From positions 5,423 to 69,422 of the forward strand of contig CAZCMD010000002.1 of the NCBI GenBank assembly GCA_964499695.1: a stretch of 64,000 nucleotides of DNA, given 5' to 3'. The translations under genes were made by a program, and so were the position numbers. This DNA comes from an uncultured Desulfatiglans sp. Its GTDB lineage: Bacteria > Desulfobacterota > DSM-4660 > Desulfatiglandales > HGW-15. Positions 43,243-62,342 of this stretch are shown here, one piece after another (the first letter of the stretch is position 1; every line of letters begins with the position of its first letter). The notes below the pieces were generated by a model. That model saw only the letters and a list, made by a program, of their open reading frames with translations. It ran no database searches and was not told the origin of the DNA.

Positions 43243-43244
43243 TA

Positions 43245-44465: not shown

Positions 44466-44486
44466 TGAGAAAGTGAGGGACGAAGC

Positions 44487-45149: not shown

Positions 45150-45204
45150 AGCACATTATCTGTGATTTTTTTGAGTTTCTTTGTAAGATAAACTCAATAG
45201 CAGA

Positions 45205-46443
45205 TTGTCAATCCCGGAGATTTTCTTGAAAATATCAAAAAACATCACCTTATCATGTAAGCTCCTTGCCGTTCATAAATTACGCACTGCCCTGTGTATG
45301 TCAAGCATGACCATAGGGGTCGCGGCCGTAATAGTTATGGTGTCCATGGGACGAGGTGCACAAAAACACGTGCTTGATATGATCCGCGATATGGGCACTA
45401 ACTTGATTGTAGTGAATGCAGGACATGTTACCCTTGTTGGTGGTCGGGAGACCCAGACAGCGATCGTTACTTCATTGCAAATCACGGATGCTGATGCCAT
45501 AAAGTCTCAGTGTGCATCTGTTGTCGATGCGGCTCCAGAGACCAGCAGCAAAATGAGTGTACAGTGGGAATCGGAAAATCTAAAAACAGAGATTGTTGGA
45601 GCTACTCCATCTGCTTTTCGGATACGCAATATAGAGATAGCAAAAGGTCGTGCATTCGATGAGGTAGATAATGATACAGCCCAGAGAGTCGCAATCATCG
45701 GTGAAGTGATCGTTGAAAAAATATTCCATGGCGAAAATTCTATTGGATATCTAATACGAATCGGCGGCGCGCTCTTCGAAGTTGTGGGAGTTATGAAAGC
45801 AAAAGGGATAGATGCCAATGGAGTGGATCGGGATGATAGAATTCTCATCCCGTTAAATACTGCGATGCATCGGCTTATACGCACTACCTTCATACAAAGG
45901 ATACACATCCAGGTCACAGATTCTACGCAATTGAAAAGTGCCGAGACCGAAATAAGAGAGTTGTTGCGTGAGAGGCACAGACTGCGTGACAAACCTGATG
46001 ACTTCACTATTCAGAACCAGGCAACCCTGATAGAGTCAGAGAGAGAATCCTCTCGCGTCTTGTCTCTTTTAGTTGCAAGTGTTGCCGCAATATCGCTTCT
46101 TGTTGGTGGTATTGGGATTCTTGCGGTCATGCTTACAGTAGGCCGGGAGAGAAGGCAAGAAATTGGATTACGCCGAGCCATTGGCGCCCGTCGACGTGAC
46201 ATTCGAACCCAGTTCCTGCTGGAATCTCTCATTATTGCCGGACTGGGCGGATTTTTTGGAGCTTTCTTCGGAATGCTCTCGACCTTTCTCGCCTCGAAGA
46301 TTGGTAATTTGCCTGCGGTTCAATCATGGGACGCAATGGGTGCGGGATTGACTCTTTCATTTATTATTGGGCTGATTTTTGGAATTTATCCTGCTTCCAA
46401 GGCTGCGACATTAGAGCCTATCGAGGCACTAAGAGCCGAATGA
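45205..46443 (+). CDS. ABC transporter permease, MacB/FtsX type (2 of 2)
   Basis: TTG start. Same architecture as 43245-44465 (…GLRRAIGARRRDIRTQF…). Confidence 0.85.
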   Translation: MSIPEIFLKISKNITLSCKLLAVHKLRTALCMSSMTIGVAAVIVMVSMGRGAQKHVLDMIRDMGTNLIVVNAGHVTLVGGRETQTAIVTSLQITDADAIKSQCASVVDAAPETSSKMSVQWESENLKTEIVGATPSAFRIRNIEIAKGRAFDEVDNDTAQRVAIIGEVIVEKIFHGENSIGYLIRIGGALFEVVGVMKAKGIDANGVDRDDRILIPLNTAMHRLIRTTFIQRIHIQVTDSTQLKSAETEIRELLRERHRLRDKPDDFTIQNQATLIESERESSRVLSLLVASVAAISLLVGGIGILAVMLTVGRERRQEIGLRRAIGARRRDIRTQFLLESLIIAGLGGFFGAFFGMLSTFLASKIGNLPAVQSWDAMGAGLTLSFIIGLIFGIYPASKAATLEPIEALRAE

Positions 46444-46858: not shown

Positions 46859-47179
46859 TTATTTCCCCGGTTTATTCTTAAACCATCCCCTGTCTGAGTA
46901 ATATTTTATTACAGCTTCTCTGAGGGATTGAAATGGGTGATCCTGCATTGCAGAAACAGAGATATTTTGCCATTGATTTTCTGCTGTTTGATCAGAATGA
47001 AAATTTTGGCTTACCAAAAAATCATATGCCTGTTGAATCTCTTTGAATCTTTCTTCTGCCTCAGGATTGTCCGGATTTTTATCAGGATGATATTTCATGA
47101 CCAGTCGCCGGTATGCCTTTTTTATCTCCTTTTTTGTTGCGTTTGGAGATATTCCTAAATGTCTATATGGATCATTCAC
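46859..47179 (-). CDS. J-domain (DnaJ-like) protein, 106 aa
   Basis: …[53 protein letters not shown]… (HPD motif). Confidence 0.85.
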
Positions 47180-47204
47180 TATATTTATCCGACTTTCGTA
47201 TTAT

Positions 47205-47972
47205 TTAAAAAATCCCCAAAAGTTTTAATACTATCTGTACCCCGAAAAACCACATGATGCACGCGAAGGCCACCTTGACGAATCCTGGGTTTGCCCTCAC
47301 TGTAATCTGAGATCCGATGGCAGAACCGAGTATGCATGCCAAGGCAGTAGCCGCAAGAAACCGAAGATCAACCTTACCAAGGGTAAAATGACCAATGGTT
47401 CCGATCAAAGAGCTGACAGTCACGATAAGCGAGTTGGCTCCAGCCGCCTTCTGAGCCCCGTATTTCATGAAAATAACAAGGAATGGAAAGATTATCAATC
47501 CACCCCCCACTCCGATAAGGCTGGACAAAACTCCGACACCAAAAGAAAAAAACAGTATAAATATGATCATCCCTGCATTAAGGGCCTTCACTTGCCGGGC
47601 AACCTTATCCTTACCGGAAATGAACAGGAGAAGGCCAGCGGCAAAAAGGAATGCAGAAAATATCCCAAGCAGCAGGTTTTTGGGGGCTATGCTGGAGAGT
47701 AACGCCCCAATAAATGAGCCTATTATTGTGCCTGGAAGAAAGACGAGACAAAAACGAAAGTCCACCAGCTTGTTCCGCTGAAATACAATTGTTGCAGTCA
47801 ACGCGGTCAGTAGGTTCAAAAAAAGCGCAGTGGATATTGCGGGCCCGACTGCCATACCTAGCATTATTAGGACAGGCGTGTAAAGCGACCCTCCTCCTTT
47901 CCCGAACATTGAAAAGACACCTGAAATTACCAAAATAGTGATAAAGCTGACAATAACTGATGACAGATTCAT
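47205..47972 (-). CDS. TauE/SafE (TSUP, DUF81) family anion exporter
   Basis: 255 aa with 8 TM segments. …GKGGGSLYTPVLIML… and …GVGGGLIIFPFLV… repeats. Confidence 0.8.
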   Translation of the reverse strand: MNLSSVIVSFITILVISGVFSMFGKGGGSLYTPVLIMLGMAVGPAISTALFLNLLTALTATIVFQRNKLVDFRFCLVFLPGTIIGSFIGALLSSIAPKNLLLGIFSAFLFAAGLLLFISGKDKVARQVKALNAGMIIFILFFSFGVGVLSSLIGVGGGLIIFPFLVIFMKYGAQKAAGANSLIVTVSSLIGTIGHFTLGKVDLRFLAATALACILGSAIGSQITVRANPGFVKVAFACIMWFFGVQIVLKLLGIF

Positions 47973-48016
47973 GACAGTTTACCTTTCAATGTCATGCACA
48001 AAACGCGAGCAACAGA

Positions 48017-48628
48017 TTAATTCTTATCTTCATAGCCGGAGCAGGGAATACATACCGGATTGCCTTCCGCTGTTTCCCTGATCTTGTTCACGAAGGTCAG
48101 CTCACCGCACTTTGAGCACCGCTTTGTTGTGAACACACCCTTGCCCTTTTTGATCTCCACCGTGTGAACCGGCCCCACCTGCAGAAAATCTTCTTCCTTG
48201 AGACCAAGAATGCGATTTACAAGCGGGTCAGTGATCTGTTGTTCAATGTCCTGAGGAGGAACCCCGGCCTTGCGCTTTTGAACAAACGGTGAGTTCAACG
48301 CCTTTTCAAAGAAGTCCGGCTTGAGTGACACACGCACCGCCCTGCCGGTTTTCTGGTCGATAAGGGTAAAGGCCATTTTATTATAATAACGTTTCTGGAT
48401 ATTGGACTTTCCATAGGTGCATCCTGTGGCGGTCATGATACCGTCCAGAAAGCAGCCGGCAGCATGGTCTTTGCCGGTTTCCGCATCAACGAAAAGCTCC
48501 TTGTCCTTTGACCTCTCCACACCGAGCGCTTTCATGGCTGCAAGCCCAGCCTTGAGCCCCATGGGCATGGCGGGGCATTTGTGGCCGTGAAACGCTAATC
48601 CAATCTCAAAAAGTTTTTCAAATTCCAT
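48017..48628 (-). CDS. FmdE-family protein with a C-terminal zinc ribbon
   Basis: …[12 protein letters not shown]… and a C-terminal CSKCGE…CIPC. Confidence 0.75.
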
Positions 48629-48651
48629 AGGTGTTCTCCTCTAAATAGTTA

Positions 48652-49917
48652 TTAATTTCCTGGTAATAGATCCGAAATACTTCCACCCATCAGGTAGAAA
48701 TAGGTGACAATCCAGTTGCAGAGTATTGTAACAATACCAAACAAAATATTTCCCACACTCATAAGCGCCCATCCTGAGAGGATATTACCTATGACACATC
48801 CACCTGCAAACGCAGCGCCTGCACCCAATAATATACCCCCTATAAATGCAACCAGTGTCTGAGATGGCGGCCTTGGTGTAAAGGTCAGAGTGCCTGAGAG
48901 TCTGCCTGAAACCCATGCGCCTATCATAAGACTTACAACAAGAAACAGCAACCAAAGGTTGATCTTTTTTGGCGCCGGGGTAGAAGGTGTAATTGGTTTT
49001 TCAGCAGCTGAGACCTGCCCGGTGGCTGTTGTTTGAGTTATAGCAGCAGGGTTTGTTTCAGACTTTTTGTAGACATATGTCGGGTTATTTTCAGTAAAGA
49101 TCTGCTGCATATGAAGAACACCGTGGGTCACACCCAGGGGATAATTTCTTCCTGTAGGGGCTGATGAGAGATAGGCAAACAATGCAAGGATGCCAATAGC
49201 AATACCGGCCTTCCAGGGTTTCCATGGGTGCGTGATCGTCCTTGATATTGCTCCTGTATCATCCTGTTTTAGTTTGCTCTGTTTTTTATTCTTTTTGTTG
49301 CTAATAATAATGCCAATTATCGTCAATACAGCAAAGATAGCTGCCAGCATCCAGTAGGGCATACCTGTAATGGATGATAAAGTAACAGGCCCGCCATCCT
49401 GTGTTTTAAGCACAAACCCGTTCATATATTTTTGTAAGCCATTAAGATAACCGAACTCCACAATGGATATCCCGAGTGGAATACCAATAAGACCGGCCAT
49501 TGAATTGATGTTACCGGCAGCAGATTTGAACAGGCACCCGCTTATACAGCCTCCGGCAAGCACTATGCCTGTACCAAAGAGCACCCCGCCAACAATATAG
49601 TTAAGATAGATAAAGGGTTTTGGTGACAATTTTATAATCCCCATAAGGTCAAATATGGCAAAAAGCGCCATGCTCACAACTATCGCTATCCAGAGACCAA
49701 GGGCCTTTGAGCGGTCTCGCATGAGAATAACTTCACTAATGGCGCTTGCACCGCACAACTCTCCTTTTTTCAGGAAAAACCCGAATAGAAAACCGACAGG
49801 GATAGCGGTTATTACCCATAGACGTGTATATATGGCAATCATGATAATAGCTGCCATTATTACAATACTTGCAATCGAATAACCTTTCCAGTTGATATCT
49901 CTTACTGCTGCTGACAT
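48652..49917 (-). CDS. YeeE/YedE-family sulfur(selenium)-compound transporter-like membrane protein
   Basis: Duplicated halves carrying conserved Cys motifs (…KKGELCGASAISE…, …AGGCISGCLFK…, …AGGCVIGNILSG…). Confidence 0.7.
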   Translation of the reverse strand: MSAAVRDINWKGYSIASIVIMAAIIMIAIYTRLWVITAIPVGFLFGFFLKKGELCGASAISEVILMRDRSKALGLWIAIVVSMALFAIFDLMGIIKLSPKPFIYLNYIVGGVLFGTGIVLAGGCISGCLFKSAAGNINSMAGLIGIPLGISIVEFGYLNGLQKYMNGFVLKTQDGGPVTLSSITGMPYWMLAAIFAVLTIIGIIISNKKNKKQSKLKQDDTGAISRTITHPWKPWKAGIAIGILALFAYLSSAPTGRNYPLGVTHGVLHMQQIFTENNPTYVYKKSETNPAAITQTTATGQVSAAEKPITPSTPAPKKINLWLLFLVVSLMIGAWVSGRLSGTLTFTPRPPSQTLVAFIGGILLGAGAAFAGGCVIGNILSGWALMSVGNILFGIVTILCNWIVTYFYLMGGSISDLLPGN

Positions 49918-49994
49918 TTGATCTCCTCCTTGTTAATATCGATTTTCATTCTGTCTACAGCCTATAGCCTAAAAAGCTACAGCCTCTTTCTCCA

Positions 49995-51272
49995 TCACGG
50001 ACATCTTATTATACCCTGCGCCCAGAGACATGCTCCGCAGGTGGGGTGTTTGTTACCGATGCAATCCTCCTCATTCTTTTCTGAAAGATCACAGCCCCCG
50101 CAGGTGATGCATGGTGAAAAATCAAAATCCATTACACGCTCTCTGAATGCCTTGTGTTCAGGGGTGTTCCACAGGTCATAGAGTTTTTTATCAACCACAT
50201 TGCCTATTGCCCATTTTTGAGAATGACGACTTCCATAATTAAGAAAGCCAAGGTACCCTTCATGGTTGTGCAGCAGGGGAAGACATGGGCTCAAGTCACC
50301 GTTCCAGGCAATTGCCCCGGCACTATCCTCGATAAAAGGGCAACGGTTTCGTAATTTCTCAGCAGATATGAATGGTATTGTCATGTGGATACTCTCTGCT
50401 GCCTTGCGTATTGCAGAAAGAGTGGCATCGTCCATATCCATTAGAGGCAGATCCAGGTCGAAACTATTCCTGTTTATTGACCTGTAATACATGGCCCCCT
50501 GAGTCATGCCTTCTGTATAAGGAAGCAGGTTCGTAACAAGCACACTGCTTGCCCCGATATTTTTACCGATATCTATTACAGCCGGTAATTCAGCTATGTT
50601 CCGTTTCATAGCAACAAAAGCAATACCTATTTTCATATGCTTTAAAAAGCCAAACCTGCCCCCCTTTTCGTTATTCATCCTGTTTAACATACTCAGGTTT
50701 TCAAGTATATTTGGCAGCTGGGCTCCCATTCGTATATCTGAAAAACTTTCTGGTGTTGCGCCGTCAAGAGATATCCACAGGGTATCAAGGCCCGATTCTA
50801 TCAGGGATTTTATCATCTCCTTTTTAAGAAGGGTCCCGTTTGTGATCAGCTCTGCTTTCATATTCATTGACTTGACGCGTGAAATCATGTCAATGATCCA
50901 CGGATGGGATAAAGGCTCACCGAAACCGCCAAAGAATATCTTTTCCGGTAATGCTGAAAATTCCATCAGCCCATCAAGTATAGCCTTAAAAACCCCTTCA
51001 GACATCATGCCCGGGGTTTCATCCCAGACATTCCTTATACAGGTGCGGCAATTGAGGTTACACTGATTTGTAACCTCAATGTAAAGTTTTGTGAGTCGCA
51101 TTGGAAGGCTCAAGGTTAAAGAGCTTCCCCTTTCTGAATATTTTACATGATCGCCAGGTTTTATTCCCAATCCAGCGGCAATTTTTGCAGGAATGATGAG
51201 GTTGCCTGATGAATCTGATTTTAAAAACTGATTTTGATCTTCTATTGTATTAAGTTTAGTACTGCTTTGCAT
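49995..51272 (-). CDS. Radical SAM / SPASM-domain protein with an N-terminal SpoVT/AbrB-like swapped-hairpin segment
   Basis: CNLNCRTC (CxxxCxxC). C-terminal Cys clusters (…NRCPFIEDSAGAIAWNGDLSPC…, …CITCGGCDLSEKNEEDCIGNKHPTCGACLWAQGIIRCP). The N-terminus …GNLIIPAKIAAGLGIKPGDHVKY… is AbrB-like. Confidence 0.8.
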   Translation of the reverse strand: MQSSTKLNTIEDQNQFLKSDSSGNLIIPAKIAAGLGIKPGDHVKYSERGSSLTLSLPMRLTKLYIEVTNQCNLNCRTCIRNVWDETPGMMSEGVFKAILDGLMEFSALPEKIFFGGFGEPLSHPWIIDMISRVKSMNMKAELITNGTLLKKEMIKSLIESGLDTLWISLDGATPESFSDIRMGAQLPNILENLSMLNRMNNEKGGRFGFLKHMKIGIAFVAMKRNIAELPAVIDIGKNIGASSVLVTNLLPYTEGMTQGAMYYRSINRNSFDLDLPLMDMDDATLSAIRKAAESIHMTIPFISAEKLRNRCPFIEDSAGAIAWNGDLSPCLPLLHNHEGYLGFLNYGSRHSQKWAIGNVVDKKLYDLWNTPEHKAFRERVMDFDFSPCITCGGCDLSEKNEEDCIGNKHPTCGACLWAQGIIRCP

Positions 51273-51437: not shown

Positions 51438-54086
51438 TCATTCGTTACTTTCAACCTCAGGATGATTTTCCTTTAACCATTTTCGGCTTACCTTTCCTCC
51501 AAATATACTGCGCATCGACTGAGGATTAACTATAGTGCTTAGATAAAGATGCGCTACAATCAGAATTAGGATTAACAATGCTGCCAGATCGTGAAGTGTA
51601 TAAAGCATAGCAAGATTGGTATTTATGTTATCCTTAAGTATAGCCAAAGAGACACCTGTGATGACCAGGAAAAAACCGCATGCGGCTATCATCCAGAATA
51701 ATATCTTCTGGCCTGCATTGAACTTGCCTGCAGGTTGTTCTCCGCGATAACCAAAATATCCACCCAGCGCCTTAAGCCACTTTTTGTCACTCTTGTTGAA
51801 AAGCATATCCCTGAACCAGATAAGCATCATCGCTATCCATGCTACACCAAATACAATGCCTATCCACATATGGAGGTTACGTGTCGGCATGCCATTTAGC
51901 CCCCGATTATTCTGTAAAAACAGTATGCCGGTTATTGCAAGGACAAGAAAAGCGGCGAGAGAAACATAATGTGCCAACCTTTCGGAGAGTGTGAATCGCA
52001 TAGTGAGGTCAGTCTCTTCGAGCGATGATCTAATGCTCCTCTGTCCATAGATCACAAAATGGAGCAACAAAACAAGTATCTCTATAAAAATTATCCAGAG
52101 ATTAGCGGGTTTTAAAATGGCCTCCCTGAACGAGCCAAGCCAGGCCTCAAGTGAAGTGATGCCCAGAATCGCATAGTTGGGTATCCATTCAGGTTGAGCA
52201 TCAGTACCAGTGAACAGTGCATCAAGAATAGCCCCATTAAAAAAGGCAGAGTCTCTGCTATGGCAATCAATACAGCCCCCTGACCCCAAAGCTGCCTTTG
52301 AGGGTGCAATATCATGAGAAAACTTATAAACCGATGCATATGCAGTAGCCTCATACTCCTCACGGTGAAGCTCTCTGACCTCTGTTGATGAAAAATATGC
52401 CTTGCTATCTGATACCCATACCAGCCGACGATTCTCAAGAGGAAAAGATGTTGCTGTAAGATAATCCTTTGTCGCTGTAAGTAGAGCCTCTATTTCCTCA
52501 TCACGATTAACCTCAATAATACCGTCCTTATTGTCGTCTGTTATCTTTGAAAGTTCAGGATATTTTTTTCCCGGATCTGCCTGATGTTGCGCCCACATCT
52601 GGTAAAAGTCCTTCATAAAAAGCTGGTTCAGCCCGGTCTTGCCTTGTTCTTCAAATCCAACCCATGAGCTGTGGACACGGTTAGCAGGGAAAATTTTACC
52701 CTTGTATCTTATAAGAGTGGGCCGGGTTATGTCAGTCGGCTGATCTTTGTTAGTAAATAGTTCCAGTTCCCCATAGTGGTTCCAAAAGTTCATCTCCTGG
52801 TCATAAAATGTCCATATGTGTTTCCCGGCAGGGTTAATCCTTGGCGCTGGGTTATAAACATCACTGGCCTGAACTAATGCGCTTTTTACTGAACGTGCCG
52901 GTATATGGCATGCCTGGCATGATATTTTATCTAGGTGCAGATCAGGAAGCCAGTCATGCCTTGCACGCGGGGCATTACCCCATCCTTCTATATGACATCT
53001 CTCACATGATCGAACCGTATTATCAAGGTCATTGCGGACAGAACCGGACGGGTCATCACCCTTCCCTATCTGGTGCACCTCTTTACCTCGGATTATCGGG
53101 TCAGCAGCATCGCTGCCAGCCGTATGGCAATCCACACAACGAAGTCCGGCAGCCATGTGGATATCCGTGCGGGTAGAGAATGAAGCCCCTCGCTTTTTCC
53201 AGCCAGGTTTGGCATGACATTTAAGACAGGTCTCATTTCGCGGTTCAGGAGTCATATGCAGCATGACATTGCCTTCGGCATCAAACCTGCTTTTATCATA
53301 GGAAATGGTTGGTTTTTCACCTGTGTTTACTTTTCCAATTATCTCCCCTAAACCTGCCCCTGCCGTCGCGGCCCAGCGAAAGTTCAGGTTGGCAAGCTCT
53401 TTGTTTCGTTTTGTATAGTCATACTCAGGCATATGACATAGAAGACAATCTGCCTCGATCACGCCAGTCTCTGCCCAACGCGCCTTGAAATAATCGCCAT
53501 CAAAATTATTCTCTCCGCCAGAGACCAGGCCTGATGCGGGATCTTGCATATTTATGTCATAGCGTTTGCCGTCACGGTCATACTCAAGAGGCCCTCCTCC
53601 TGGATGGCAATTACCACAGGAGGCGGTCACAAATTCAAAGGAGGTCATATCAATTATGCGTGCGTTTGTGTTATTTTTAGAGGCAAGCTGCCGATAAAGG
53701 GGAGCAGGTGAGCACCAGTTTCCGCCATAATTTCCGGGCGAACTTACCCAGTTGTAGCGTTTGGCCATGGCATCAGGGACTTTCTCCCCCTTACCCTGAG
53801 TAAAGTGAAAACCCTCGGTGATTTTTTCATAGTTGTGACATCCGCTAACACCGCAGGTCTGCTTGGGGGAATATGGTACAGTATCGTTTATACCTTTAAC
53901 AGGGTCAATTATATTTCCAGCCTCATCGCGTAGTTGAAAAGGTGGGCAGACATCAATGGCCTGGGGCACATCTTCATCATTAGAGGAATGATTACGAGTT
54001 TCTCCTATAGTCACATCAGGACTTACTCCCGCAAATAACATTATCATAAGGCCAATGCTTATAAAAGAAGTATAAATATATTTCAT
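51438..54086 (-). CDS. Fusion cytochrome: periplasmic octahaem c-type domain plus C-terminal FdnI/HydC-like b-type membrane domain (CbcL-like)
   Basis: Seven CxxCH motifs (SCGNCH, DCLLCH, TCLKCH, RCVDCH, SCERCH, SCQACH, GCIDCH) plus one CX4CH (CGVSGCH). The last 250 aa or so carry 4-5 TM helices with conserved His residues. I preferred the ATG at 54086 (GAGGGGG upstream). Confidence 0.8.
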   Translation of the reverse strand: MKYIYTSFISIGLMIMLFAGVSPDVTIGETRNHSSNDEDVPQAIDVCPPFQLRDEAGNIIDPVKGINDTVPYSPKQTCGVSGCHNYEKITEGFHFTQGKGEKVPDAMAKRYNWVSSPGNYGGNWCSPAPLYRQLASKNNTNARIIDMTSFEFVTASCGNCHPGGGPLEYDRDGKRYDINMQDPASGLVSGGENNFDGDYFKARWAETGVIEADCLLCHMPEYDYTKRNKELANLNFRWAATAGAGLGEIIGKVNTGEKPTISYDKSRFDAEGNVMLHMTPEPRNETCLKCHAKPGWKKRGASFSTRTDIHMAAGLRCVDCHTAGSDAADPIIRGKEVHQIGKGDDPSGSVRNDLDNTVRSCERCHIEGWGNAPRARHDWLPDLHLDKISCQACHIPARSVKSALVQASDVYNPAPRINPAGKHIWTFYDQEMNFWNHYGELELFTNKDQPTDITRPTLIRYKGKIFPANRVHSSWVGFEEQGKTGLNQLFMKDFYQMWAQHQADPGKKYPELSKITDDNKDGIIEVNRDEEIEALLTATKDYLTATSFPLENRRLVWVSDSKAYFSSTEVRELHREEYEATAYASVYKFSHDIAPSKAALGSGGCIDCHSRDSAFFNGAILDALFTGTDAQPEWIPNYAILGITSLEAWLGSFREAILKPANLWIIFIEILVLLLHFVIYGQRSIRSSLEETDLTMRFTLSERLAHYVSLAAFLVLAITGILFLQNNRGLNGMPTRNLHMWIGIVFGVAWIAMMLIWFRDMLFNKSDKKWLKALGGYFGYRGEQPAGKFNAGQKILFWMIAACGFFLVITGVSLAILKDNINTNLAMLYTLHDLAALLILILIVAHLYLSTIVNPQSMRSIFGGKVSRKWLKENHPEVESNE

Positions 54087-54128: not shown

Positions 54129-54557
54129 CTACCTGCCAAGCTCTTCCTCTAGATTTTCCACAAATGCCTTTATCTCATTCCTTACCCTTCTGTAATTGTT
54201 CAATGCCTTCTCCTCATCCTTTTCACCTTCAGAAAGCCTTGGCGGATCATCAAAACCCCGGTGCATCAATTTTGTCTTTGCAGGGAAATAGGGACATGCC
54301 TCATGGGCATTGTCACAAAGGGTTACCACATAATCAAATTGCATATCTCCGAGTGAATCTATATCTTTTGATTTCTGACCTGATATATCTACCCCTGCTT
54401 CAGACATTACCTTCACAGCTCTGGGGTCAACCCCTTTTGGAGATATCCCGGCAGAGTATGCATTGAATTTAATCTTTTGCAGATAATTTGTCCACCCTTC
54501 TGCCATCTGGCTTCTGCATGAGTTCCCAGTACATAGGAAGAGTATCTTTTTAGGCAT
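54129..54557 (-). CDS. arsC: Arsenate reductase, LMW-PTP / thioredoxin-coupled type
   Basis: MPKKILFLCTGNSCRSQMAEGW… with downstream TLC…EACP cysteines. The ATG lies 1 nt after the acr3 stop. Confidence 0.9.
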   Translation of the reverse strand: MPKKILFLCTGNSCRSQMAEGWTNYLQKIKFNAYSAGISPKGVDPRAVKVMSEAGVDISGQKSKDIDSLGDMQFDYVVTLCDNAHEACPYFPAKTKLMHRGFDDPPRLSEGEKDEEKALNNYRRVRNEIKAFVENLEEELGR

Positions 54558-54558
54558 G

Positions 54559-55659
54559 TTAACCCTCACACCTCACATGACACACACCTGTCAGTGTTTT
54601 AACTTCATATGGGAAATATTTTCTTTTTAACCATAATGCCACATTAACCAGTGCAATCAGTACAGGTACTTCAACAAGCGGCCCAATGACAGCGGCAAAT
54701 GCCTGCCCTGAGTTAATACCGAATACTGCTACTGCAACGGCAATGGCCAGTTCAAAATTGTTGGATGCCGCAGTAAAGCTTAAGGTTGTTGACTGCTCGT
54801 ATGTGGCCCCCGCCTTCATGGAAAGGAAGAAAGAGGCAAAAAACATTATTACAAAATAGATACAGAGCGGAATAGCAACCCGAATCACATCCATTGGGAG
54901 CTGAACAATATATTCGCCTTTAAGGGAGAACATGACCAGTATGGTAAACAATAGTGCAATCAGTGTAATGGGGCTGATCTTTGGGATGAATTTTTTCTCA
55001 TACCATTCCTTTCCTTTTGTATTAAGACCTATAACACGTGTAATAATGCCCGCAATAAAGGGAATACCGAGGTAGATAAATACACTTTCGGCTATCTGAC
55101 CGATTGATATATTAACAACAATACCCTTTAATCCAATCCACTGTGGTACAACAGTTATAAAGATGTAGGCATACAATGAAAAGAAGAGCACCTGGAATAT
55201 TGAATTGAACGCAACAAGACCGGCACAGTATTCGGTATCGCCTGATGCGAGTTCATTCCAGACTATAACCATTGCTATACATCTTGCGAGGCCAATTAGT
55301 ATCAGCCCAACCATGTACTCATGGTGCCCTGATAAAAAGGCGATTGCCAGCAGAAACATCAGGATTGGCCCTATAACCCAGTTCTGCACGAGCGAAAGAA
55401 CAAGTACCCTGATATTTTTGAATACACTGCCAAGCTGTTCGTATTTGACCTTTGCGAGAGGCGGATACATCATCAATATAAGACCTATCGCTATTGGTAT
55501 ATTGGTTGTTCCAACCTGAAAGATATTAATGACATCTTTAATTTTCGGAAACAGATATCCTGAAAAAACCCCAATTATCATTGCTGCAAAAATCCACAGC
55601 GTAAGGAACCTGTCAAGAAAAGAGAGTCTTTTAGTAATTGATCCACTCATTTTATTCAC
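54559..55659 (-). CDS. acr3: Arsenite efflux permease, ACR3 family
   Basis: …[21 protein letters not shown]…[22 protein letters not shown]…. Confidence 0.9.
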
Positions 55660-56359
55660 CTATAAATGGTTTAACAATAAAATAGAGACCCAACAGGATG
55701 ATAACTACACCTGCCCCCCTTCTAAACCATCTCCCGGTACCCTGCCACCTGCTGTTTTCCATTATACTTTTAACAAACCCGGTTGAGCTCCCTGCAATAA
55801 CAATGGGCAGACAATGGCCTATAGCAAAAAGGATTATGTAAATAATGCCAACAATGATCTTTTGCTGCACAGTAATAATGGCAAGCACAGGGGCAATAAA
55901 TCCAAAGGTGCAGGAGCCTGAAAGAATGCCATATGCAAGCCCTAAACCCAGTGCCCCAAGAAATCCCCTGAAGTTTAATTTATACAGCAGGCTGCCGGAT
56001 GCGGAGCATTTATCTACCCCGAGCATACCAAGTGCAATCCATATCAGAATAATTCCAATAATAACCTGCCAGTAATTACCTATATCTCCAAGCATCCTGC
56101 CAAGAAAGGCGCATATGATACCCACAAGAGCTATAGAGATAAAAAGTCCGGTGGAAAATAATAAAGAATATATGGCTGCCTTCCGGGGTGTTAAAAGGGT
56201 CTCCTGGCCCCCTACATATGCAACTATAAGAGGTATTGATGCCAGGTGACAGGGGCTGAACAGAACGCTTATCACACCCCACAGAAAACAACCCAGTGCC
56301 GCTATTGCAGGGCCTGCTGTTATCCATTCATTAACAGTAAGGAAAAAAGAATCAAACAT
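55652..56359 (-). CDS. ccdA: CcdA/DsbD-type transmembrane thiol-disulfide electron transporter
   Basis: …[16 protein letters not shown]… and …[13 protein letters not shown]… (two essential TM cysteines). Confidence 0.8.
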
Positions 56360-56382: not shown

Positions 56383-56775
56383 TTATTTTTCAACACCCAT
56401 TTTAGCAAGCTGGGCTACAATATCCTTTTCACTCATGAACCCGATGTGTCTGAAGACCTCTTCTCCACTTGGGTTAAAGAATACCTGGGTGGGAAGAGCC
56501 CTTAATTTGTATACATATTGCTGTTCAGGATCATCAAGGAGATTTATAAAAACAATGGCGGCCTTTCCCTCATAACTAGTTTTGAGTTTTTCCAGTATCG
56601 GAGACATCATTTTGCATTGAGTGCAGGTTTTTTTACCAAGTGCGACCATTGTCACCATACCCTTGACAGGAAGGTTTTTTAGGAATTCCTCATGCTCTTC
56701 AGCAGGCGTTTTACCTGATACAATTCCTGGCACAATAAGAATGGCTATAAGTATTGTAATTAATAAAGACTTCAT
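56383..56775 (-). CDS. Periplasmic thioredoxin-fold protein (TlpA/ResA-like, CxxC = CTQC)
   Basis: ATG at 56775 with GGAGG upstream. Signal peptide. …KKTCTQCKMMSPILEKL… It is a paralogue of the 40441-40935 product. Confidence 0.75.
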   Translation of the reverse strand: MKSLLITILIAILIVPGIVSGKTPAEEHEEFLKNLPVKGMVTMVALGKKTCTQCKMMSPILEKLKTSYEGKAAIVFINLLDDPEQQYVYKLRALPTQVFFNPSGEEVFRHIGFMSEKDIVAQLAKMGVEK

Positions 56776-56791
56776 TTTTATCCTCCACAAA

Positions 56792-57583
56792 TTATTTAAC
56801 AGCCTGTATATAAGCAGAGAAAACCAAGTTTTCAGCCCCTTTGGCCACATTCCAACTACTGATTATTTCATGACTCTTAGGTTTATTTATAATTGTTTTT
56901 TCTTTAAACCCATTGTCTGTAAGAATTTTTTCCACCTCACCGGGTGAAATAGCCCCGGACACTCAGCCAGTGTAGGCTTCAGGATCATTCAGAACCTGCG
57001 CTGGCAGATCTCCTGATCGTAATACATCAGAGATAATCATCCTTCCACCAGGTTTAAGGGCGCGGAATATCTCACCGAACACCCTGTTTTTATCGGGTGA
57101 AAGATTAATTACACAGTTGGATATTACCACATCAACAGAGCTGTCAGGTACGGGCAGTTCTTCTATTTTTCCCCACCTGAAATCAACATTCTTAAAATTT
57201 AATTTTTGAGCGTTTTCTTTGGCCCGTTCAACCATTTCGGGGGTCATGTCCACGCCAATCACCTTTCCTGATTCACCCACAATCCTTGCTGCAAGAAATG
57301 CATCAAACCCGGCGCCGCTTCCCAAATCCAGTACTGTTTCACCGGGTTTGAGTTTTGCCTGGCTTAATGGATTTCCGCATCCAAGCCCCAGGTTTGCCTC
57401 ACCGGGGGCAAGACGAAGCTCTTCATCAGTGTAATCAAGGGCCCTGCCTAGTTCTTCAATAGAGATATCCTGCCCTGTTTCTCCGCAGCATGAAGAACAG
57501 GCAATGCCACCTGATTTAGCAATATCAGAGTATTTTTTAATTACAATCTGATGAATTTTTTCTTTTTGTATTTCAATGCCCAT
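56792..57583 (-). CDS. arsM: Arsenite S-adenosylmethionine methyltransferase (ArsM-like) with in-frame UGA (56965-56963) read as selenocysteine, Sec207
   Basis: The ORF track stops at …NDPEAYTG(TGA). My hand translation continues in frame: VSGAISPGEVEKILTDNGFKEKTIINKPKSHEIISSWNVAKGAENLVFSAYIQAVK, ending at TAA 56794-56792. The upstream part carries the ArsM cysteines (CSSCC, GLGCGNP, SNCVINL) and the SAM motif VLDLGSGAG. The UGA sits where ArsM has the conserved G-C-(V/L)-(A/S)-GA cysteine. The extension closes an otherwise 187-nt gap to the next gene, leaving 16 nt. Confidence 0.7.
56924..56962 (-). promoter_or_regulatory. Candidate bacterial SECIS hairpin(s) immediately 3' of the UGA
   Basis: The mRNA reads UGA GUGUCCGGGGCUAUUUCACCCGGUGAGGUGGAAAAAAUU. 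Alternative 1 is CCGGG/CCCGG (5 bp, 9-nt loop). Alternative 2 is UUUCACC/GGUG(G)AAA with apical loop CGGUGA (containing GGU) starting 20 nt after the UGA. Confidence 0.4.
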
Positions 57584-57590
57584 ATATTAT

Positions 57591-57971
57591 CTATGCACCC
57601 CCGCAACACACCTTTTTAATCTCATCTTTTACCCTCTGAATCTCAAGGTGTTTCAGATCAAAGTCCTTGCTCTTTTTGATTCCCAGATCAGTTAGAACAA
57701 TATAATCTTTTAAAGGAACATCTGCCCGAGCAAGCGTAGCCTTTGCGCAGCCCACTTCACATCCATCAATGGCTATCATGCGGGGCGTATCCTTTGCCGA
57801 CTGTACAAAACCCGAAAGACCGCCACCTATCCCTGCAAGACAGAACATCTTTCCAAAACCTTCCTGCGTAAGTTCAACAGCAGCCCTGTTGGCTAGCTGA
57901 CCCACATTTGATGCGCCTGAACAGGCAAGAATCATAATATTCCCATCAGTTGTACAGCAATTTTCTGCCAT
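57591..57971 (-). CDS. DGC-domain putative metal(loid)-binding protein
   Basis: …ILACSGASNVGQLAN…AIDGCEVGCA… and a C-terminal CCGG. The family is commonly found in ars clusters. Confidence 0.65.
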   Translation of the reverse strand: MAENCCTTDGNIMILACSGASNVGQLANRAAVELTQEGFGKMFCLAGIGGGLSGFVQSAKDTPRMIAIDGCEVGCAKATLARADVPLKDYIVLTDLGIKKSKDFDLKHLEIQRVKDEIKKVCCGGA

Positions 57972-57992: not shown

Positions 57993-58226
57993 TTATTGTT
58001 GTATCCAACCTTTGATCTCATCCTTGGTTGGTATCTTTCCTACGCTTTTTACCTTGCCATCCACAACAATAGCAGGTGTCCCGAACACACCGTGTTTAGC
58101 TATCTCAAGGGTGTCAGTGATTTTTTCAACATTTACATTTATTCCTGCCTCTGCCACGGCATCCATCACGTTTTTCATGGTAGCCTCGCATCTTTTACAT
58201 CCCGGTCCTAATACCTTTATTTCCAT
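57993..58226 (-). CDS. Thioredoxin-family 'redox-active disulfide protein 2' (Thioredoxin_3)
   Basis: MEIKVLGPGCKRCE…GVFGTPAIVVDGKV… 77 aa. Confidence 0.85.
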   Translation of the reverse strand: MEIKVLGPGCKRCEATMKNVMDAVAEAGINVNVEKITDTLEIAKHGVFGTPAIVVDGKVKSVGKIPTKDEIKGWIQQ

Positions 58227-58330: not shown

Positions 58331-59503
58331 TTACATAGTTAACCATCCATAGGTCATACCCGCTATAGTGGATAGAATCACAATTATTGAACAGAACACG
58401 GCTGTCTTTTTAACTCCCATAATCCCGTTTATGACCAGCATGTTAGGCAGAGACAAAGCCGGCCCTGCCAGAAGCAGCGCAAGCGCAGGCCCTTTGCCCA
58501 TGCCTGCCCCAATAAGCCCCTGCAATATGGGGACTTCAGTAAGGGTTGCAAAATACATTAACGCCCCTGCTACTGAGGCAAAAAGGTTTGCCCATAGAGA
58601 ATTGCCACCAACCAGGCTCTCTATATAGTGTTCAGGTATAAGCGCCGGATGACCCGGTCTTCCAAGTAAAAAACCAGCAACAAGTACACCTGCGAAAAGA
58701 AGCGGGAAAATCTGTTTCATGAACCCCCATGTTGATTCGACCCAGTTTATTCTTTCATCTTTTTTGAACCACTGTTTGATCATAAACCCTAAAACAATCA
58801 GCAAAATAAAGGTGATGTACCATTTTATTGAAAATATGAAGGGCCAGATCCCTATTTCCCCCTGGGCTGGTCTGGCAAAGGCGGCAAATATAAGTATGAG
58901 AACCATTGTAAATATAAACATGGCATCTTGTGTCAGTGTCCGGCCCTTTTCCTCTTCATCAGGCAGATATATCTGCCCTGCCTCTCTTGCCGCATCATCC
59001 TTTCTGAAGATAAATGCCATCAGAATGCCTGTTATTATAGCAAATAGCACCGCTCCGACAGCCCTTGCTAAACCAAGCTGCCAGCCAAGGATTCGCGCAG
59101 TCAAGACAATGGCAAGTACATTTATCGCGGGCCCTGAATAAAGAAAGGCAGTAGCAGGACCAATACCCGCACCCCTTGTATATATACCAGCAAAAAGGGG
59201 AAGAACCGTACATGAACATACAGCAAGTACTGTCCCGGACACGGAGGCAACAGAGTATGATAATATCTTATTTGCCTTTGAGCCAAAATATTTAAGGACA
59301 GATGCCTGGGATACAAATACTGCTATAGCACCGGCAATAAAGAAAGCCGGTATAAGGCATGTGAGCACATGCTCCCTTGCATACTCCTGAAGCATAAGAA
59401 ATGCCTCAAGACCTGACCTGCGGACAATTTCACTGTGCCAGGGTATATAATATGCCCCTAAAAATATAACGATTATAAGTAATAATTTATTACGTTCTTT
59501 CAT
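58331..59503 (-). CDS. arsP: ArsP-like permease (DUF318 family; putative organoarsenical efflux)
   Basis: 390-aa polytopic protein. Vicinal Cys pair in a TM segment (…GTVLAVCSCTVLPLF…). It is linked to Thioredoxin_3 and ArsR, as is typical for this family. Confidence 0.75.
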   Translation of the reverse strand: MKERNKLLLIIVIFLGAYYIPWHSEIVRRSGLEAFLMLQEYAREHVLTCLIPAFFIAGAIAVFVSQASVLKYFGSKANKILSYSVASVSGTVLAVCSCTVLPLFAGIYTRGAGIGPATAFLYSGPAINVLAIVLTARILGWQLGLARAVGAVLFAIITGILMAFIFRKDDAAREAGQIYLPDEEEKGRTLTQDAMFIFTMVLILIFAAFARPAQGEIGIWPFIFSIKWYITFILLIVLGFMIKQWFKKDERINWVESTWGFMKQIFPLLFAGVLVAGFLLGRPGHPALIPEHYIESLVGGNSLWANLFASVAGALMYFATLTEVPILQGLIGAGMGKGPALALLLAGPALSLPNMLVINGIMGVKKTAVFCSIIVILSTIAGMTYGWLTM

Positions 59504-59552: not shown

Positions 59553-59897
59553 TCATCTGCAGCAGACTTCATCCCTTCGGACTGATGGAAGCTTATCCAT
59601 AAGGGATATGATATCTTTTTCATTCTTGAGCCAGTGTTTAAGGTTACCCAGAAGGCTTGCAGCATAGGGTGATCCATTCCCATCGGACAGATAATAATCC
59701 ACCCATAACCCATCCTTTCTGCTTTCGACCAGACCTGCTTCTTCAAGTATTTTAAGGTGTTTTGATGCGCTCGGCTGGGCAATCTGGAGCGCCTCCCTTA
59801 TTTCGCAGACACACATTTTCTTATGTTGAAGCATTTTTACTATCTTAACCCTGTTTGGATCAGACAGGGCCTTCATTACCTTTATAAAATCTTTCAT
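59553..59897 (-). CDS. arsR: ArsR/SmtB-family repressor (second copy)
   Basis: MKDFIKVMKALSDPNRVKIVKMLQHKKMCVCEIREAL…SKHLKILEEAGLV… I preferred the ATG at 59897 (GGAG upstream) because a promoter lies inside the longer TTG-initiated ORF. Confidence 0.85.
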   Translation of the reverse strand: MKDFIKVMKALSDPNRVKIVKMLQHKKMCVCEIREALQIAQPSASKHLKILEEAGLVESRKDGLWVDYYLSDGNGSPYAASLLGNLKHWLKNEKDIISLMDKLPSVRRDEVCCR

Positions 59898-60065: not shown

Positions 60066-62342
60066 TTAATGGCTGTCAAGCTGTGGGTAGGATTTTACGA
60101 GATCTTTATCAAGCTTAAAGGATTCATTCAGTATCTCAAGCAGTTTTATATTCTGCCTGACTGCCATCAAACAATCACCCACAATTGCATAGAAAAGAAT
60201 GCTAAGTCTTGTTTTTGATGAATTATCCTGTATCCTTTTGATCTGCTCGATATTCGCCCTGTCTGCAATCTGATTTAATCTGTTATATTGCTCAACAATG
60301 TTCTGATATTCACTGATATCCTTATTTATGAAGGCAGTCTCTACCTTTATAAATACATCCATCACAATATCTTTTATCTCCTTAAGCTCTTCGATCTGAA
60401 CACCAAGCAGCCCTTTATGCTTATTTGCGATATGTATATATGACCTCAACACAATATCTCTGAACCCGTCAGAAAGTTTCTGGAGGATACGGATTGTCCG
60501 TGCATAATTATGAGAGAGTTTATGATCTTCCTTCTGCTGAAGCCTCAACACCTTGAAGACATTTGCCATAATGATATTGACCCACACCTGGTGTTTTTTA
60601 ACCACTTTTCTTTGTATATTTAATGTGCTGATATCCTGCATGAAAAGGGCATCAAGTGTTGTATCAAAACATCTCCTGAATTCACCAATCAAGATGGCCA
60701 GGTGATTGAAGGTTATTGATATAGCCGCTTTAGGATCAGAGATCTTCTTCAGGTTTAATATCTCTGTTTCTTTAATCTCTTCTGACCGTGTCTTATGCTT
60801 TTTATGATTGCGGTAGATAATCAATATGGATATGACAAACAGTAGTGCAATCCCTATAATCTCCAGTGATGCTATTATGTAGCAGAAGAGAAATGCAAAT
60901 ATAAAGGCAACCAGGGCGGTCATAAACCACCCGCCTATTACTGTCAGCACCCCTGTAACCCTGTAAACAGCGCTTTCTCTTCCCCAGGCCTGATCAGCAA
61001 ATGAGGTACCCATGGCAACCATAAATGTTACATATGTGGTAGAAAGGGGAAGTTTCATCGACGTGGCATATGCTATGAGGGCGCTCGAGACCATCAGGTT
61101 TACCGAGGCGCGCAGCATATCGAACTGTGGTCTTCTGTCCAGGTCTGGAGTTGCCTTTCTACTTGACGGGTCTATTCTTCTGTCAACGATCTCCTTTACC
61201 CTTTCAGGTATAAAGCAGCACAGATTGTTGAAGAGTGCATCGGTCATGCTCACAATCTTTCTTGAGATCCACATGGATTCAAAAAGTTCAGTCCCTTCAT
61301 CCTGCTGCCCCAGGCTTATCTCTGTACGTGTAACAGTGCGGCCTTTTTTAGAAAACCAGAGAGTAAGCACCATAATTATACCTGACAACACCAGGAGCAT
61401 CCCCTGGGTATGCACCTTGTCACTTAATGCGCCCATCATCTGAGTCATCGGGTTTCCTGATGCCACTGCTATCTGATATGCATTAAGTCCGGCAAGGGGC
61501 ACTCCAATGAAATTTACAAGGTCATTGGATGCAAAGGCCATTGCCAGGGCAAAGGTGCCAGCGAGGACAATTATCTTTAATATTTTAATCCTGAATAAAA
61601 TCAGGGCCTGGAATATTATTGCTGAACAGATAAAAATGTAGGCCATCAGTCTGAAGGTATGCTCCTTTATCCAGAGAGCTATCTCAGGTGTTATAAATGT
61701 TGCCCCTTTTACCCCGTTAATCAGCATGAAATATATAATCAGCACCATTGCAAGGCCACCCCACAGCGCGCCATATCGTTTGATTTTTTTCTCATAGTTA
61801 AAAGTAAAGATAAGGCGTGTAAAAAACTGGATGACTGTACCGAAAAAGAAGGCAACAATAATTGATAATAGAATACCGAATATGATAACCATTGCCTTTG
61901 ATGTGTTGATGTATGAAATAACATCGACAAAACTTGCGCCTGAATCCTGTACCTTTAAAAAGGCCATTGCAACGGCGGCACCAAGCAGATCAAAAACAAT
62001 AGAAACTGTTGTTGATGTTGGAAGACCATAGGTATTGAATACATCAAGGAGGAGTATATCGGTGAACATAACCGCAAGAAAGACCGTGATCAGCTCCGGC
62101 ATGGTAAAAAACTGGGGATGAAAAATACCCTTTCTTGCCACCTCCATCATCCCGCCTGATGCAGCGACTCCGGTAAGGATACCAATGCTCGCAATAATAA
62201 GTATTACGAAAAATGGGGCAGCCTTTGAACCTATGGCTGAATTTAAAAAATTAACCGCATCATTTGCCACGCCAACTATCAGATCAAAAAAGGCAAAGAG
62301 CAGCAAGAGACCGACAAGTATATATATAACTTCTATTCCCAT
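60066..62342 (-). CDS. pit: PiT (PHO4) family inorganic phosphate transporter with a long C-terminal PhoU-like helical domain
   Basis: N-terminal GVANDAVNF (GANDxxN) and a second …SNDLVNFIGVPLAG… PiT repeat. The last 230 aa or so are soluble and helical (PhoU-like pattern). 758 aa. Confidence 0.75.
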   Translation of the reverse strand: MGIEVIYILVGLLLLFAFFDLIVGVANDAVNFLNSAIGSKAAPFFVILIIASIGILTGVAASGGMMEVARKGIFHPQFFTMPELITVFLAVMFTDILLLDVFNTYGLPTSTTVSIVFDLLGAAVAMAFLKVQDSGASFVDVISYINTSKAMVIIFGILLSIIVAFFFGTVIQFFTRLIFTFNYEKKIKRYGALWGGLAMVLIIYFMLINGVKGATFITPEIALWIKEHTFRLMAYIFICSAIIFQALILFRIKILKIIVLAGTFALAMAFASNDLVNFIGVPLAGLNAYQIAVASGNPMTQMMGALSDKVHTQGMLLVLSGIIMVLTLWFSKKGRTVTRTEISLGQQDEGTELFESMWISRKIVSMTDALFNNLCCFIPERVKEIVDRRIDPSSRKATPDLDRRPQFDMLRASVNLMVSSALIAYATSMKLPLSTTYVTFMVAMGTSFADQAWGRESAVYRVTGVLTVIGGWFMTALVAFIFAFLFCYIIASLEIIGIALLFVISILIIYRNHKKHKTRSEEIKETEILNLKKISDPKAAISITFNHLAILIGEFRRCFDTTLDALFMQDISTLNIQRKVVKKHQVWVNIIMANVFKVLRLQQKEDHKLSHNYARTIRILQKLSDGFRDIVLRSYIHIANKHKGLLGVQIEELKEIKDIVMDVFIKVETAFINKDISEYQNIVEQYNRLNQIADRANIEQIKRIQDNSSKTRLSILFYAIVGDCLMAVRQNIKLLEILNESFKLDKDLVKSYPQLDSH

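Follow-up and report, generated by a model that had tools for sequence, protein, structure and literature searches.

To our knowledge, the described enzymes of arsenic redox chemistry are the cytoplasmic ArsC and the molybdoenzymes Arr, Aio, and Arx. Among multihaem cytochromes, OTR of Shewanella oneidensis (1SP3; TIGR04315) is a soluble protein that is thought to take electrons from CymA and that carries seven bis-His haems together with one Lys-ligated catalytic haem. CbcL (GSU0274) is a 619-amino-acid (aa) protein with nine CXXCH motifs packed within residues 34-257 at 28 aa per haem (PMC9129911; PMC6295460 Table S2), i.e., at positions 34, 57, 82, 105, 129, 158, 186, 229, and 257 (PMC6295460 Table S2); all of its haems are bis-His-ligated, its c domain is largely disordered, it has 6 transmembrane (TM) helices, and its role is in extracellular electron transfer (PMC9129911). 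Herein, we examine a gene from an uncultured Desulfatiglans sp. (Desulfobacterota; assembly GCA_964499695.1, contig CAZCMD010000002.1), located in a stretch of 64,000 nucleotides (nt) that is hereafter termed the window and to whose numbering all positions refer. Encoded directly behind arsC, its product joins an octahaem c-type domain to a dihaem membrane cytochrome b. We hold with good confidence that this cytochrome is an ars-linked, OTR-like periplasmic redox enzyme; that it is best explained overall as an accessory enzyme of the ars regulon, and not as an extracellular-electron-transfer module, is a proposal whose prospects of being right or wrong we consider evenly balanced.

The architecture agrees with an earlier note on this DNA, made from the sequence alone, which had described a periplasmic domain with seven CxxCH motifs and one Cx4CH motif, joined in one chain to an FdnI/HydC-type cytochrome b in the membrane. 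The reading frame begins with an ATG at 54086, preceded by the Shine-Dalgarno sequence GAGGGGG, and ends with a stop codon at 51440-51438; an alternative longer open reading frame (ORF) from a GTG start would reach 54122. The protein is identical to public-collection entry P0001. Given its own Cys and His content, the chance expectation for CxxCH is ~0.012; the seven motifs found begin (in 882-aa numbering) at C157, C214, C287, C317, C361, C390, and C605, and all of the haem-c motifs (8/8) are invariant across an alignment of 28 homologues. Eight sites over ~610 aa amount to ~78 residues per haem, with haems 7 and 8 set apart by a non-haem insert of ~210 residues that is partly beta-rich. At the N-terminal signal position, many homologues display a lipobox.

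The membrane domain is likewise well supported by profile matches, with the C-terminal 190 aa scoring above the cutoffs of both PF01292 (77.5 bits; cutoff 30.1) and TIGR01583, "formate dehydrogenase subunit gamma" (122.1 bits; cutoff 115.85), and with the profile of the cytochrome family matching Escherichia coli FdnI (1kqf_C) at E = 7e-25. Residues H706, H739, H832, and H846 align with the haem-b ligands H18, H57, H155, and H169 of FdnI, and all four are 100% conserved in 17 FdnI-type homologues. A Q-site-like motif, GKFNAGQK, aligns with GKYNAGQK of FdnI (shared pattern GK[FY]NAGQK). After the periplasmic domain, the full-length model, which is only moderately reliable here, places helices at residues 645-684, 700-722, 733-757, 791-817, and 825-853. 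The predicted topology is thus of 1+4 TM helices, in which the extra helix would lead the polypeptide out of the periplasm and across the membrane, so that the FdnI-type four-helix bundle begins on the cytoplasmic side.

Set beside the described systems, the protein resembles OTR in holding eight c-type haem sites within one periplasmic domain; unlike OTR, its domain is ~170 aa longer, contains the ~210-aa insert between haems 7 and 8, opens with a Cx4CH site, is fused to a membrane cytochrome b, and is encoded amidst ars genes. With FdnI (1KQF chain C) and HydC it shares the above-cutoff profile scores, the four haem-b His residues, the GK[FY]NAGQK motif, and the predicted four-helix bundle; unlike FdnI, its periplasmic electron partner is covalently attached through the extra TM helix, and no gene for an FdnG, FdnH, or hydrogenase partner was found near the window cytochrome. 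The likeness to CbcL advanced in the earlier note does not extend beyond the layout of an N-terminal periplasmic multihaem c domain followed by a C-terminal HydC/FdnI-related dihaem b domain, with a presumed exchange with the menaquinone pool. Unlike CbcL, the window protein has 8 sites spread over residues 78-609 in an OTR-like folded domain, a predicted 1+4 TM topology, and an ars context, a distinction drawn from the published motif layout and description of CbcL. In homologues of CbcL, MtrH, and MtoC, successive CXXCH motifs lie 20-45 aa apart, whereas those of the window protein start at residues 78 (Cx4CH), 157, 214, 287, 317, 361, 390, and 605; of the entries of Table S2 in PMC6295460 that were compared, none has its motif spacing. 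Any likeness to ArrAB(C), Aio, and Arx would be functional only, in that periplasmic arsenic redox chemistry would be coupled to quinone-pool exchange if the best explanation is right; unlike those molybdopterin/iron-sulfur enzymes of the DMSO-reductase family, the window protein is purely haem-based and without homology to them.

The genomic context of the cytochrome carries much of the argument. Along the minus strand of the window, the gene order is arsR, ArsP_1 permease, 77-aa thioredoxin-like protein, DGC, arsM, periplasmic thioredoxin, ccdA, acr3, arsC, and cytochrome, with intergenic gaps of -8 to ~100 nt; from the arsC stop at 54129 to the cytochrome ATG at 54086, the distance is exactly 42 nt, as had been noted earlier. 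A homology search returned >1,600 related proteins, with 55-80% identity across phyla. Homologue loci were taken as the best 80 of 381 species genomes with a relative in a GTDB-based collection; these 80 all come from metagenome-assembled genomes (MAGs) and span >10 phyla. They include Desulfatiglans, Desulfonema, and Desulfobacca, as well as members of the Myxococcota, Acidobacteriota, Nitrospirota, Planctomycetota, Verrucomicrobiota, Bacteroidota, Ignavibacteriota, KSB1, Sumerlaeota, and others.

Synteny across these loci was counted by tblastn and by ORF clustering on MAG contigs of unequal length. Searched by tblastn, homologues of the window neighbours were found for ArsR in 49, Acr3 in 37, ArsC in 35, and ArsP_1 in 35 of the 80 loci (the ArsP_1 copies all on the strand of the cytochrome), followed by DGC (28), thioredoxin (28), CcdA (26), and ArsM (22). 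ORF clustering, which is more sensitive than tblastn with window sequences and thus yields higher counts, detected CcdA in 44/80 loci (46/47 copies on the cytochrome's strand) and ArsP_1 in 43/80, always on the cytochrome's strand. Thioredoxin homologues lie at a median of 1.2 kb from the cytochrome, 27/28 of them on its strand. The periplasmic thioredoxin, CcdA, and the ArsP_1 permease are the tightest partners of the cytochrome; the CcdA and thioredoxin pair that the earlier note had pointed out a few genes upstream lies on the same strand and is part of the conserved module. For loci with at least 15 kb of flanking sequence, an ars-module gene is present in 38/41; Acr3, ArsC, or ArsM is present in 30/41, and two or more of these in 23/41. 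Across all 80 loci, 49 have a recurrent partner gene on the same strand within 400 nt of the cytochrome.

Individual loci illustrate this association. In L081, the closest relative on a long contig (74% identical), the order is ArsR, ArsP, Trx_3, DGC, Trx, CcdA, Acr3, cytochrome, ArsC, radical-SAM, and YeeE, such that the cytochrome gene is situated inside the ars operon, between acr3 and arsC. In L082, the cytochrome gene shares 4 nt with the end of an RND pump that is ArsR-linked; in L089, it is preceded by an RND pump, a half-ArsP_1, and an outer-membrane barrel. Certain recurrent partners are absent from the window, namely an Alginate_exp (PF13372) outer-membrane barrel in 27/80 loci, often adjoining the cytochrome; in 16/80 loci, an FMN_red (PF03358) flavoprotein that bears a Tat signal and shares its Pfam family with ArsH; and, in 26/80 loci, a CxxC lipoprotein of 182 aa that matches nothing in Pfam. 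Examples of such partners are at L009 8452-9873, L089 7571-8989, L048 60-758, and L023 5662-6210.

As a control, a metagenome scan seeded with paralogues provided 80 more loci. Among these is a P0157-like clade, ~33% identical to the window protein and of the same octahaem-plus-FdnI architecture, for which ars-module genes were found in 0/52 loci (0/24 with at least 10 kb of flank); no conserved neighbour emerged around these genes, including no thioredoxin or CcdA. The clade comprises L091-L130, L135, L140, L143, L167, L083, and L084, with members in, e.g., Gemmatimonadota and Methylomirabilota, and its proteins are annotated "formate dehydrogenase gamma subunit". Three further paralogue loci, checked by annotation, are also ars-free. 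When at least 5 kb of flank is required, ars-module genes accompany 58/67 core-clade loci vs 0/34 P0157-like loci (Fisher p = 6e-19), and Acr3, ArsC, or ArsM alone accompany 42/67 vs 0/34 (p = 4e-11); these p values overstate the case because the loci are not phylogenetically independent, though there is no ambiguity in the contrast as such. A third clade, made up of anchor-less octahaems of ~590 aa that are ~34% identical to the window protein, occurs in a context of ArsR, ArsP, DGC, Trx, CcdA, ArsC, and Acr3. The earlier note had weighed a meaningful arsenic placement against fortuitous adjacency; since ars linkage is kept across phyla and is missing from the paralogue clade (38/41 long loci vs 0/52 paralogue loci), chance adjacency is rejected and the placement can be taken as meaningful.

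The second line of evidence comes from the fold of the periplasmic domain. A shallow sequence profile of the first 640 residues detected no relative in the PDB, and a first AlphaFold run, on the full-length protein with 28 sequences, reached a pLDDT of only 57 in the haem region and was unusable there. A second run, on the domain only and with a 124-sequence alignment widened by paralogous clades, gave a model with pLDDT 94.2 and pTM 0.91. With this model, Foldseek returned a single significant match in the PDB, i.e., S. oneidensis OTR (1SP3; E = 8e-8, probability 1.0, 553 columns). A deeper family profile also had OTR as its best cytochrome c match (1.5e-4), followed by NrfA and cytochrome c554, and in the profile alignment haems 4 to 8 pair one to one with those of OTR. 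On the strength of this fold match, the profile matches, and an agreeing sub-threshold match to TIGR04315, the domain as modelled belongs, at some distance, with the catalytic multihaem cytochromes of the OTR, NrfA, and HAO superfamily, standing outside the OTR family proper. The OTR-like periplasmic domain gives the protein the look of an enzyme and not of a wire.

The distribution of candidate haem ligands is consistent with such a role. Outside the haem motifs, six His residues (H94, H310, H338, H377, H384, and H591) are conserved in all clades across 124 sequences. The alignment column of residue 47 holds only Cys or His, being Cys in 74/74 core-clade sequences, His in 19/19 of the P0157-like clade, His in 12/12 of the anchor-less clade, and Cys in 8 and His in 3 sequences of the other clades; it thus behaves as an axial-ligand position. 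Together, the six His and residue 47 make seven conserved positions that could provide distal ligands to the eight haems, a count that would match OTR, in which seven haems are six-coordinate and the remaining one is catalytic. Residue K137, located 20 residues before the haem-2 motif and conserved in 113/119 sequences, is a candidate counterpart of the OTR Lys ligand. The switch at position 47 suggests that one haem of the core clade has His/Cys ligation, as is typical for cytochromes that handle sulfur compounds (e.g., TsdA and SoxAX); C47 and C125 are the cysteines specific to this clade. Residues common to both ars-linked clades but missing from the non-ars clade amount to two Ala/Ser positions only, with no evident specificity signature.

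Considerable variation is found in how the periplasmic domain is anchored. Of the 120 closest homologues, ~18 have an FdnI-type anchor with all four His, as in the window copy, and ~10 have a DUF4405 + PF01292 anchor that may be of the CbcL type. The remaining ~92 (~three quarters) possess a shorter anchor with a single conserved His, three of the four haem-b His residues being gone; this would be, at best, a decayed FdnI-like domain (hhalign probability 24%). An alternative identity for it, as half an ArsP_1 permease, was rejected (hhalign probability 0.2%). Because most close homologues thus carry a degenerate anchor, quinol coupling is not a general property of the family; for the window copy, whose anchor appears intact, a link to the menaquinone pool is plausible. 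In public annotations, homologues are termed "formate dehydrogenase gamma subunit", "multiheme c-type cytochrome", or "hypothetical", the first of which is misleading.

Fusion proteins were also encountered. Metagenomic P0366 (1094 aa) consists of a membrane-anchored thioredoxin, an octahaem domain, and a DUF4405/PF01292 cytochrome b, with no signal peptide between the thioredoxin and the octahaem domain. The existence of this fusion points to a functional link between thioredoxin and cytochrome that goes beyond co-location. Two other candidates for Rosetta-stone fusions, P0124 and P0127 (1130 aa, annotated "permease"), in which the N-terminal half of an ArsP_1 protein precedes the cytochrome, were judged to be likely frameshift or gene-calling artefacts in high-GC MAGs, since their Arg/Pro-rich linker reads as out-of-frame sequence and is followed by the cytochrome's own signal peptide.

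From these components, a working mechanism can be put forward. Expression of the cytochrome would be controlled by ArsR. Menaquinol would be oxidized at the FdnI-type site on the cytoplasmic side, from which electrons would travel outward, first over the pair of b haems and then along the chain of c haems, to a catalytic haem that is five-coordinate. There, a small arsenic species would be reduced in the periplasm; arsenate, methyl-arsenate, or thio-arsenate would be the likeliest. CcdA and thioredoxin would supply thiol reductant, either for cytochrome maturation or for re-reduction of the cytochrome's Cys residues. With standard potentials of ~+0.14 V for arsenate/arsenite and ~-0.07 V for menaquinone, reduction of arsenate by menaquinol is downhill and oxidation of arsenite to reduce menaquinone is uphill. 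The reductive direction is favoured by these thermodynamics and by OTR, the nearest structural relative, being a reductase of small oxyanions; oxidation of As(III) is further disfavoured because a quinone site on the cytoplasmic side would need electrons to flow inward against the membrane potential. The specific substrate (a pentavalent arsenic oxyanion) and the direction (reduction) are nonetheless only tentatively assigned. More doubtful still is the fullest form of the proposal, i.e., that the family is a haem-based periplasmic arsenic oxidoreductase class which has spread horizontally on ars islands through >10 phyla of mostly uncultured anaerobes, with the window copy functioning as a menaquinol:arsenate (or methyl-/thio-arsenate) reductase.

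Several observations weigh against the reading of the protein as an OTR-like reductase in the service of arsenic resistance. The structural match to OTR is remote (14% identity; TM-score 0.30/0.41), and the TIGR04315 score of 47.7 bits is far below the cutoff of 375 and covers residues 305-399 only. A sub-profile of the N-terminal portion, the presumed active-site third, gave no alignment to OTR 1sp3, such that Lys56 of OTR was not mapped. The canonical direction of FdnI is quinone reduction, the reverse of that proposed. With ~75% of close homologues degenerate-anchored and a related ars-linked clade anchor-less, quinol coupling is not essential to the arsenic-related role of the family. ArsR-family regulators and ArsP_1 permeases are not strictly arsenic-specific, some core-clade cytochrome genes stand alone (e.g., L087), and no cultured isolate appeared among the close homologues. 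Finally, the benefit to the cell of reducing arsenate in the periplasm is not obvious.

In a rival reading, the protein would work in the opposite direction, as a periplasmic oxidase. As(III) or methylarsenite exported by Acr3 or ArsP would be oxidized at the octahaem domain and the electrons passed to quinone via the b domain, making the cytochrome an anaerobic counterpart of Aio/ArsH detoxification. Its tightest neighbours are exporters of trivalent arsenicals (ArsP in 43/80 and Acr3 in 35/80 loci; in L082 and L089, RND pumps), quinone reduction with electrons from the periplasm is the normal activity of FdnI and HydC, the Tat-exported FMN_red flavoprotein of ArsH's family accompanies the cytochrome in 16 loci, and octahaem relatives such as HAO act oxidatively. 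Set against this are the uphill step of ~0.2 V (at standard potentials) from As(III) to menaquinone, which would also be opposed by the membrane potential, the reductase activity of OTR as the nearest structural relative, and the loss of the b haems from most homologues. We therefore regard an oxidase as unlikely.

In another reading, the cytochrome, CcdA, and thioredoxin would repair As(III) damage in the periplasm, the cytochrome itself not acting on arsenic but serving as a thiol:quinone or thiol:cytochrome oxidoreductase, or as an NrfA/OTR-like detoxifier of peroxide, nitrite, or hydroxylamine. In keeping with such envelope protection, no partners lie nearer or keep more consistently to the cytochrome's strand than thioredoxin and CcdA, P0366 joins thioredoxin and cytochrome in one chain, C47 and C125 are specific to the core clade, and OTR and NrfA are known for broad small-molecule activity. 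It would, however, leave unexplained the linkage of the arsenic-specific Acr3, ArsC, and ArsM in 30/41 long loci; the paralogue clade of the same architecture lacks thioredoxin and CcdA neighbours, and a need for dedicated CcdA and thioredoxin would arise just as well from ordinary cytochrome c maturation. Little probability is thus assigned to a purely protective function.

A third possibility is that of a reductase for another chalcogen or metalloid (tetrathionate/polysulfide, selenite, tellurite, or antimonate) under an ArsR-family regulator, for which ars genes would be mere frequent neighbours on mixed islands. The closest fold is, after all, that of a tetrathionate reductase; genes for YeeE-type sulfur transport, TauE, and FmdE lie downstream in the window, whose arsM is an apparent selenoprotein gene; some loci contain only ArsR plus an RND pump or ArsP_1, without Acr3, ArsC, or ArsM; and the Cys/His ligand switch recalls the sulfur-handling TsdA and SoxAX. 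Yet YeeE, TauE, and FmdE are rare partners (2, 6, and 12 of 80 loci), whereas Acr3, ArsC, and ArsM are common ones, and the window ArsR has a CVC motif of the As(III) type. This possibility is accordingly held to be improbable. The last alternative, a CbcL-like respiratory quinol oxidase for extracellular or periplasmic acceptors that lies behind arsC by chance, is essentially excluded, for although the window protein shares with CbcL the layout of a c-type multihaem domain plus a HydC/FdnI-like b domain and a minority of homologues have the DUF4405-plus-PF01292 anchor, its haem density (8 in ~610 aa vs 9 in 250 aa), predicted topology (1+4 vs 6 TM helices), and OTR-like fold do not match, no Geobacter or Desulfuromonas/Desulfuromonadales was present among the best 80 of 381 matched loci, ORF clustering of the 80 loci revealed no porin-cytochrome or other multihaem cytochrome as a conserved neighbour, and ars linkage in 58/67 vs 0/34 paralogue loci contradicts chance.

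The genes around the cytochrome in the window are set out in Table 1. The best promoter-like site of the region (TTGACA-17-TATATT, 11/12 matches, 59957-59929) is located just upstream of arsR; no terminator-like site was detected by consensus scan in the 42-nt gap between arsC and the cytochrome, and the only promoter-like match near this gap overlaps the cytochrome start codon and ends downstream of it. These scans are consensus matches only and hence weak evidence. The in-frame TGA of arsM falls on the conserved C-terminal catalytic Cys position (AYTG-TGA-VSGA), and read-through to 56792 would give a normal ArsM C-terminus, with 14 nt left between its end and the start of the thioredoxin gene; the protein also matches NCBIfam models for selenoproteins of the ArsM type, though below their cutoffs. 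Given the location of the TGA at the catalytic Cys and the existence of such models, it is probably a selenocysteine codon that is read through, although a search for a selenocysteine insertion sequence (SECIS) hairpin in the RNA after the UGA yielded a folding z of -0.1 and no match in Rfam. The ArsP_1, Trx_3, and DGC genes form a trio that recurs as a module in these ars islands.

Table 1. Coordinates of the cytochrome gene, its parts, and the neighbouring ars-string genes in the window.
Feature	Position	Strand	Basis or remark
Whole gene, octahaem-c/dihaem-b fusion cytochrome	51438..54086	minus	882 aa + stop; ORF translation
Signal peptide or membrane helix, residues 1-23 MKYIYTSFISIGLMIMLFAGVSP	54018..54086	minus	Sequence; helix 2-20 in full-length model
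Cys47 (VCPPF), candidate axial haem ligand	53946..53948	minus	Cys-or-His-only alignment column
Haem-c binding region	52260..53855	minus	7 CxxCH + 1 Cx4CH
Cx4CH motif, C78GVSGCH84	53835-53855	minus	
CxxCH motifs	53604-53618, 53433-53447, 53214-53228, 53124-53138, 52992-53006, 52905-52919, 52260-52274	minus	
Long helix, residues 645-684	52035..52154	minus	Full-length model; hydrophobic part ~661-680, predicted extra TM helix
FdnI/HydC-type dihaem cytochrome b domain	51495..51998	minus	PF01292
Radical-SAM/SPASM protein	49995..51272	minus	TIGR04317 (tungsten-cofactor oxidoreductase maturase) 295 bits, below cutoff 380
arsC (low-molecular-weight protein tyrosine phosphatase [LMW-PTP]/thioredoxin-coupled type)	54129..54557	minus	PF01451; TIGR02691 142 bits, below cutoff 174
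acr3 arsenite efflux transporter	54559..55659	minus	TIGR00832 460 bits, cutoff 283
CcdA/DsbD-type thiol-disulfide transporter	55652..56359	minus	PF02683
Periplasmic thioredoxin, signal peptide, CTQC motif	56383..56775	minus	PF00085
arsM	56792..57583	minus	NF008823 289 bits; in-frame TGA 56963-56965
DGC-domain protein	57591..57971	minus	PF08859
Small thioredoxin-like protein, 77 aa, CKRC motif	57993..58226	minus	L081 counterpart is PF13192 Thioredoxin_3
ArsP_1-family permease	58331..59503	minus	PF03773 255 bits
arsR, CVC motif	59553..59897	minus	PF01022, NF033788

The cytochrome had been presumed to be the terminal gene of the string, which does not hold, as a radical-SAM/SPASM gene follows it on the same strand after 165 nt and may continue the operon. 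Beyond the cytochrome, positions 46859-51272 of the minus strand are occupied by the radical-SAM/SPASM, YeeE/Sulf_transp, FmdE, TauE, and DnaJ-domain genes, a block that hints at sulfur or selenium handling. It recurs, partly or reordered, in the two closest relatives (L081 and L001), where the radical-SAM gene lies 10 nt after arsC, and is rare in the wider family, with radical-SAM in 6 of the 80 loci alongside the low counts for YeeE, FmdE, and TauE given above. Directly upstream of arsR, a 758-aa phosphate transporter of the PHO4/PiT family with a long C-terminal extension is encoded on the minus strand at 60066-62342; since arsenate enters cells via phosphate transporters, this adjacency may be meaningful. 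On the opposite strand, positions 41959-46443, adjoining the region examined here, contain an efflux cluster of a HlyD-type adaptor, two MacB/FtsX permeases, and an ABC ATPase.

A full-text literature search, outside of which most subscription journals lie, uncovered no multihaem cytochrome described as a component of an ars operon, and surveys of multihaem cytochromes cover homologues of OTR and CbcL and not the family of the window cytochrome. The protein is probably a redox enzyme of the periplasm that serves arsenic detoxification and has so far gone undescribed. Anaerobes drive the mobilization of arsenic in aquifers and paddy soils. Anaeromyxobacter PSR-1 reportedly respires arsenate without arr. 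Should the family indeed act on arsenic, it would add a new class of enzyme to the arsenic cycle and give metagenomic surveys a new marker gene, besides providing a molybdenum-independent route of arsenic reduction and a candidate for arsenate reduction or respiration in organisms without ArrAB. Recognition of the family corrects its widespread mis-annotation as "formate dehydrogenase gamma subunit". Even if its function were only that of envelope protection, a periplasmic redox module made up of thioredoxin, CcdA, and octahaem cytochrome is present in the ars islands of anaerobes, and current models of arsenic resistance ignore it.

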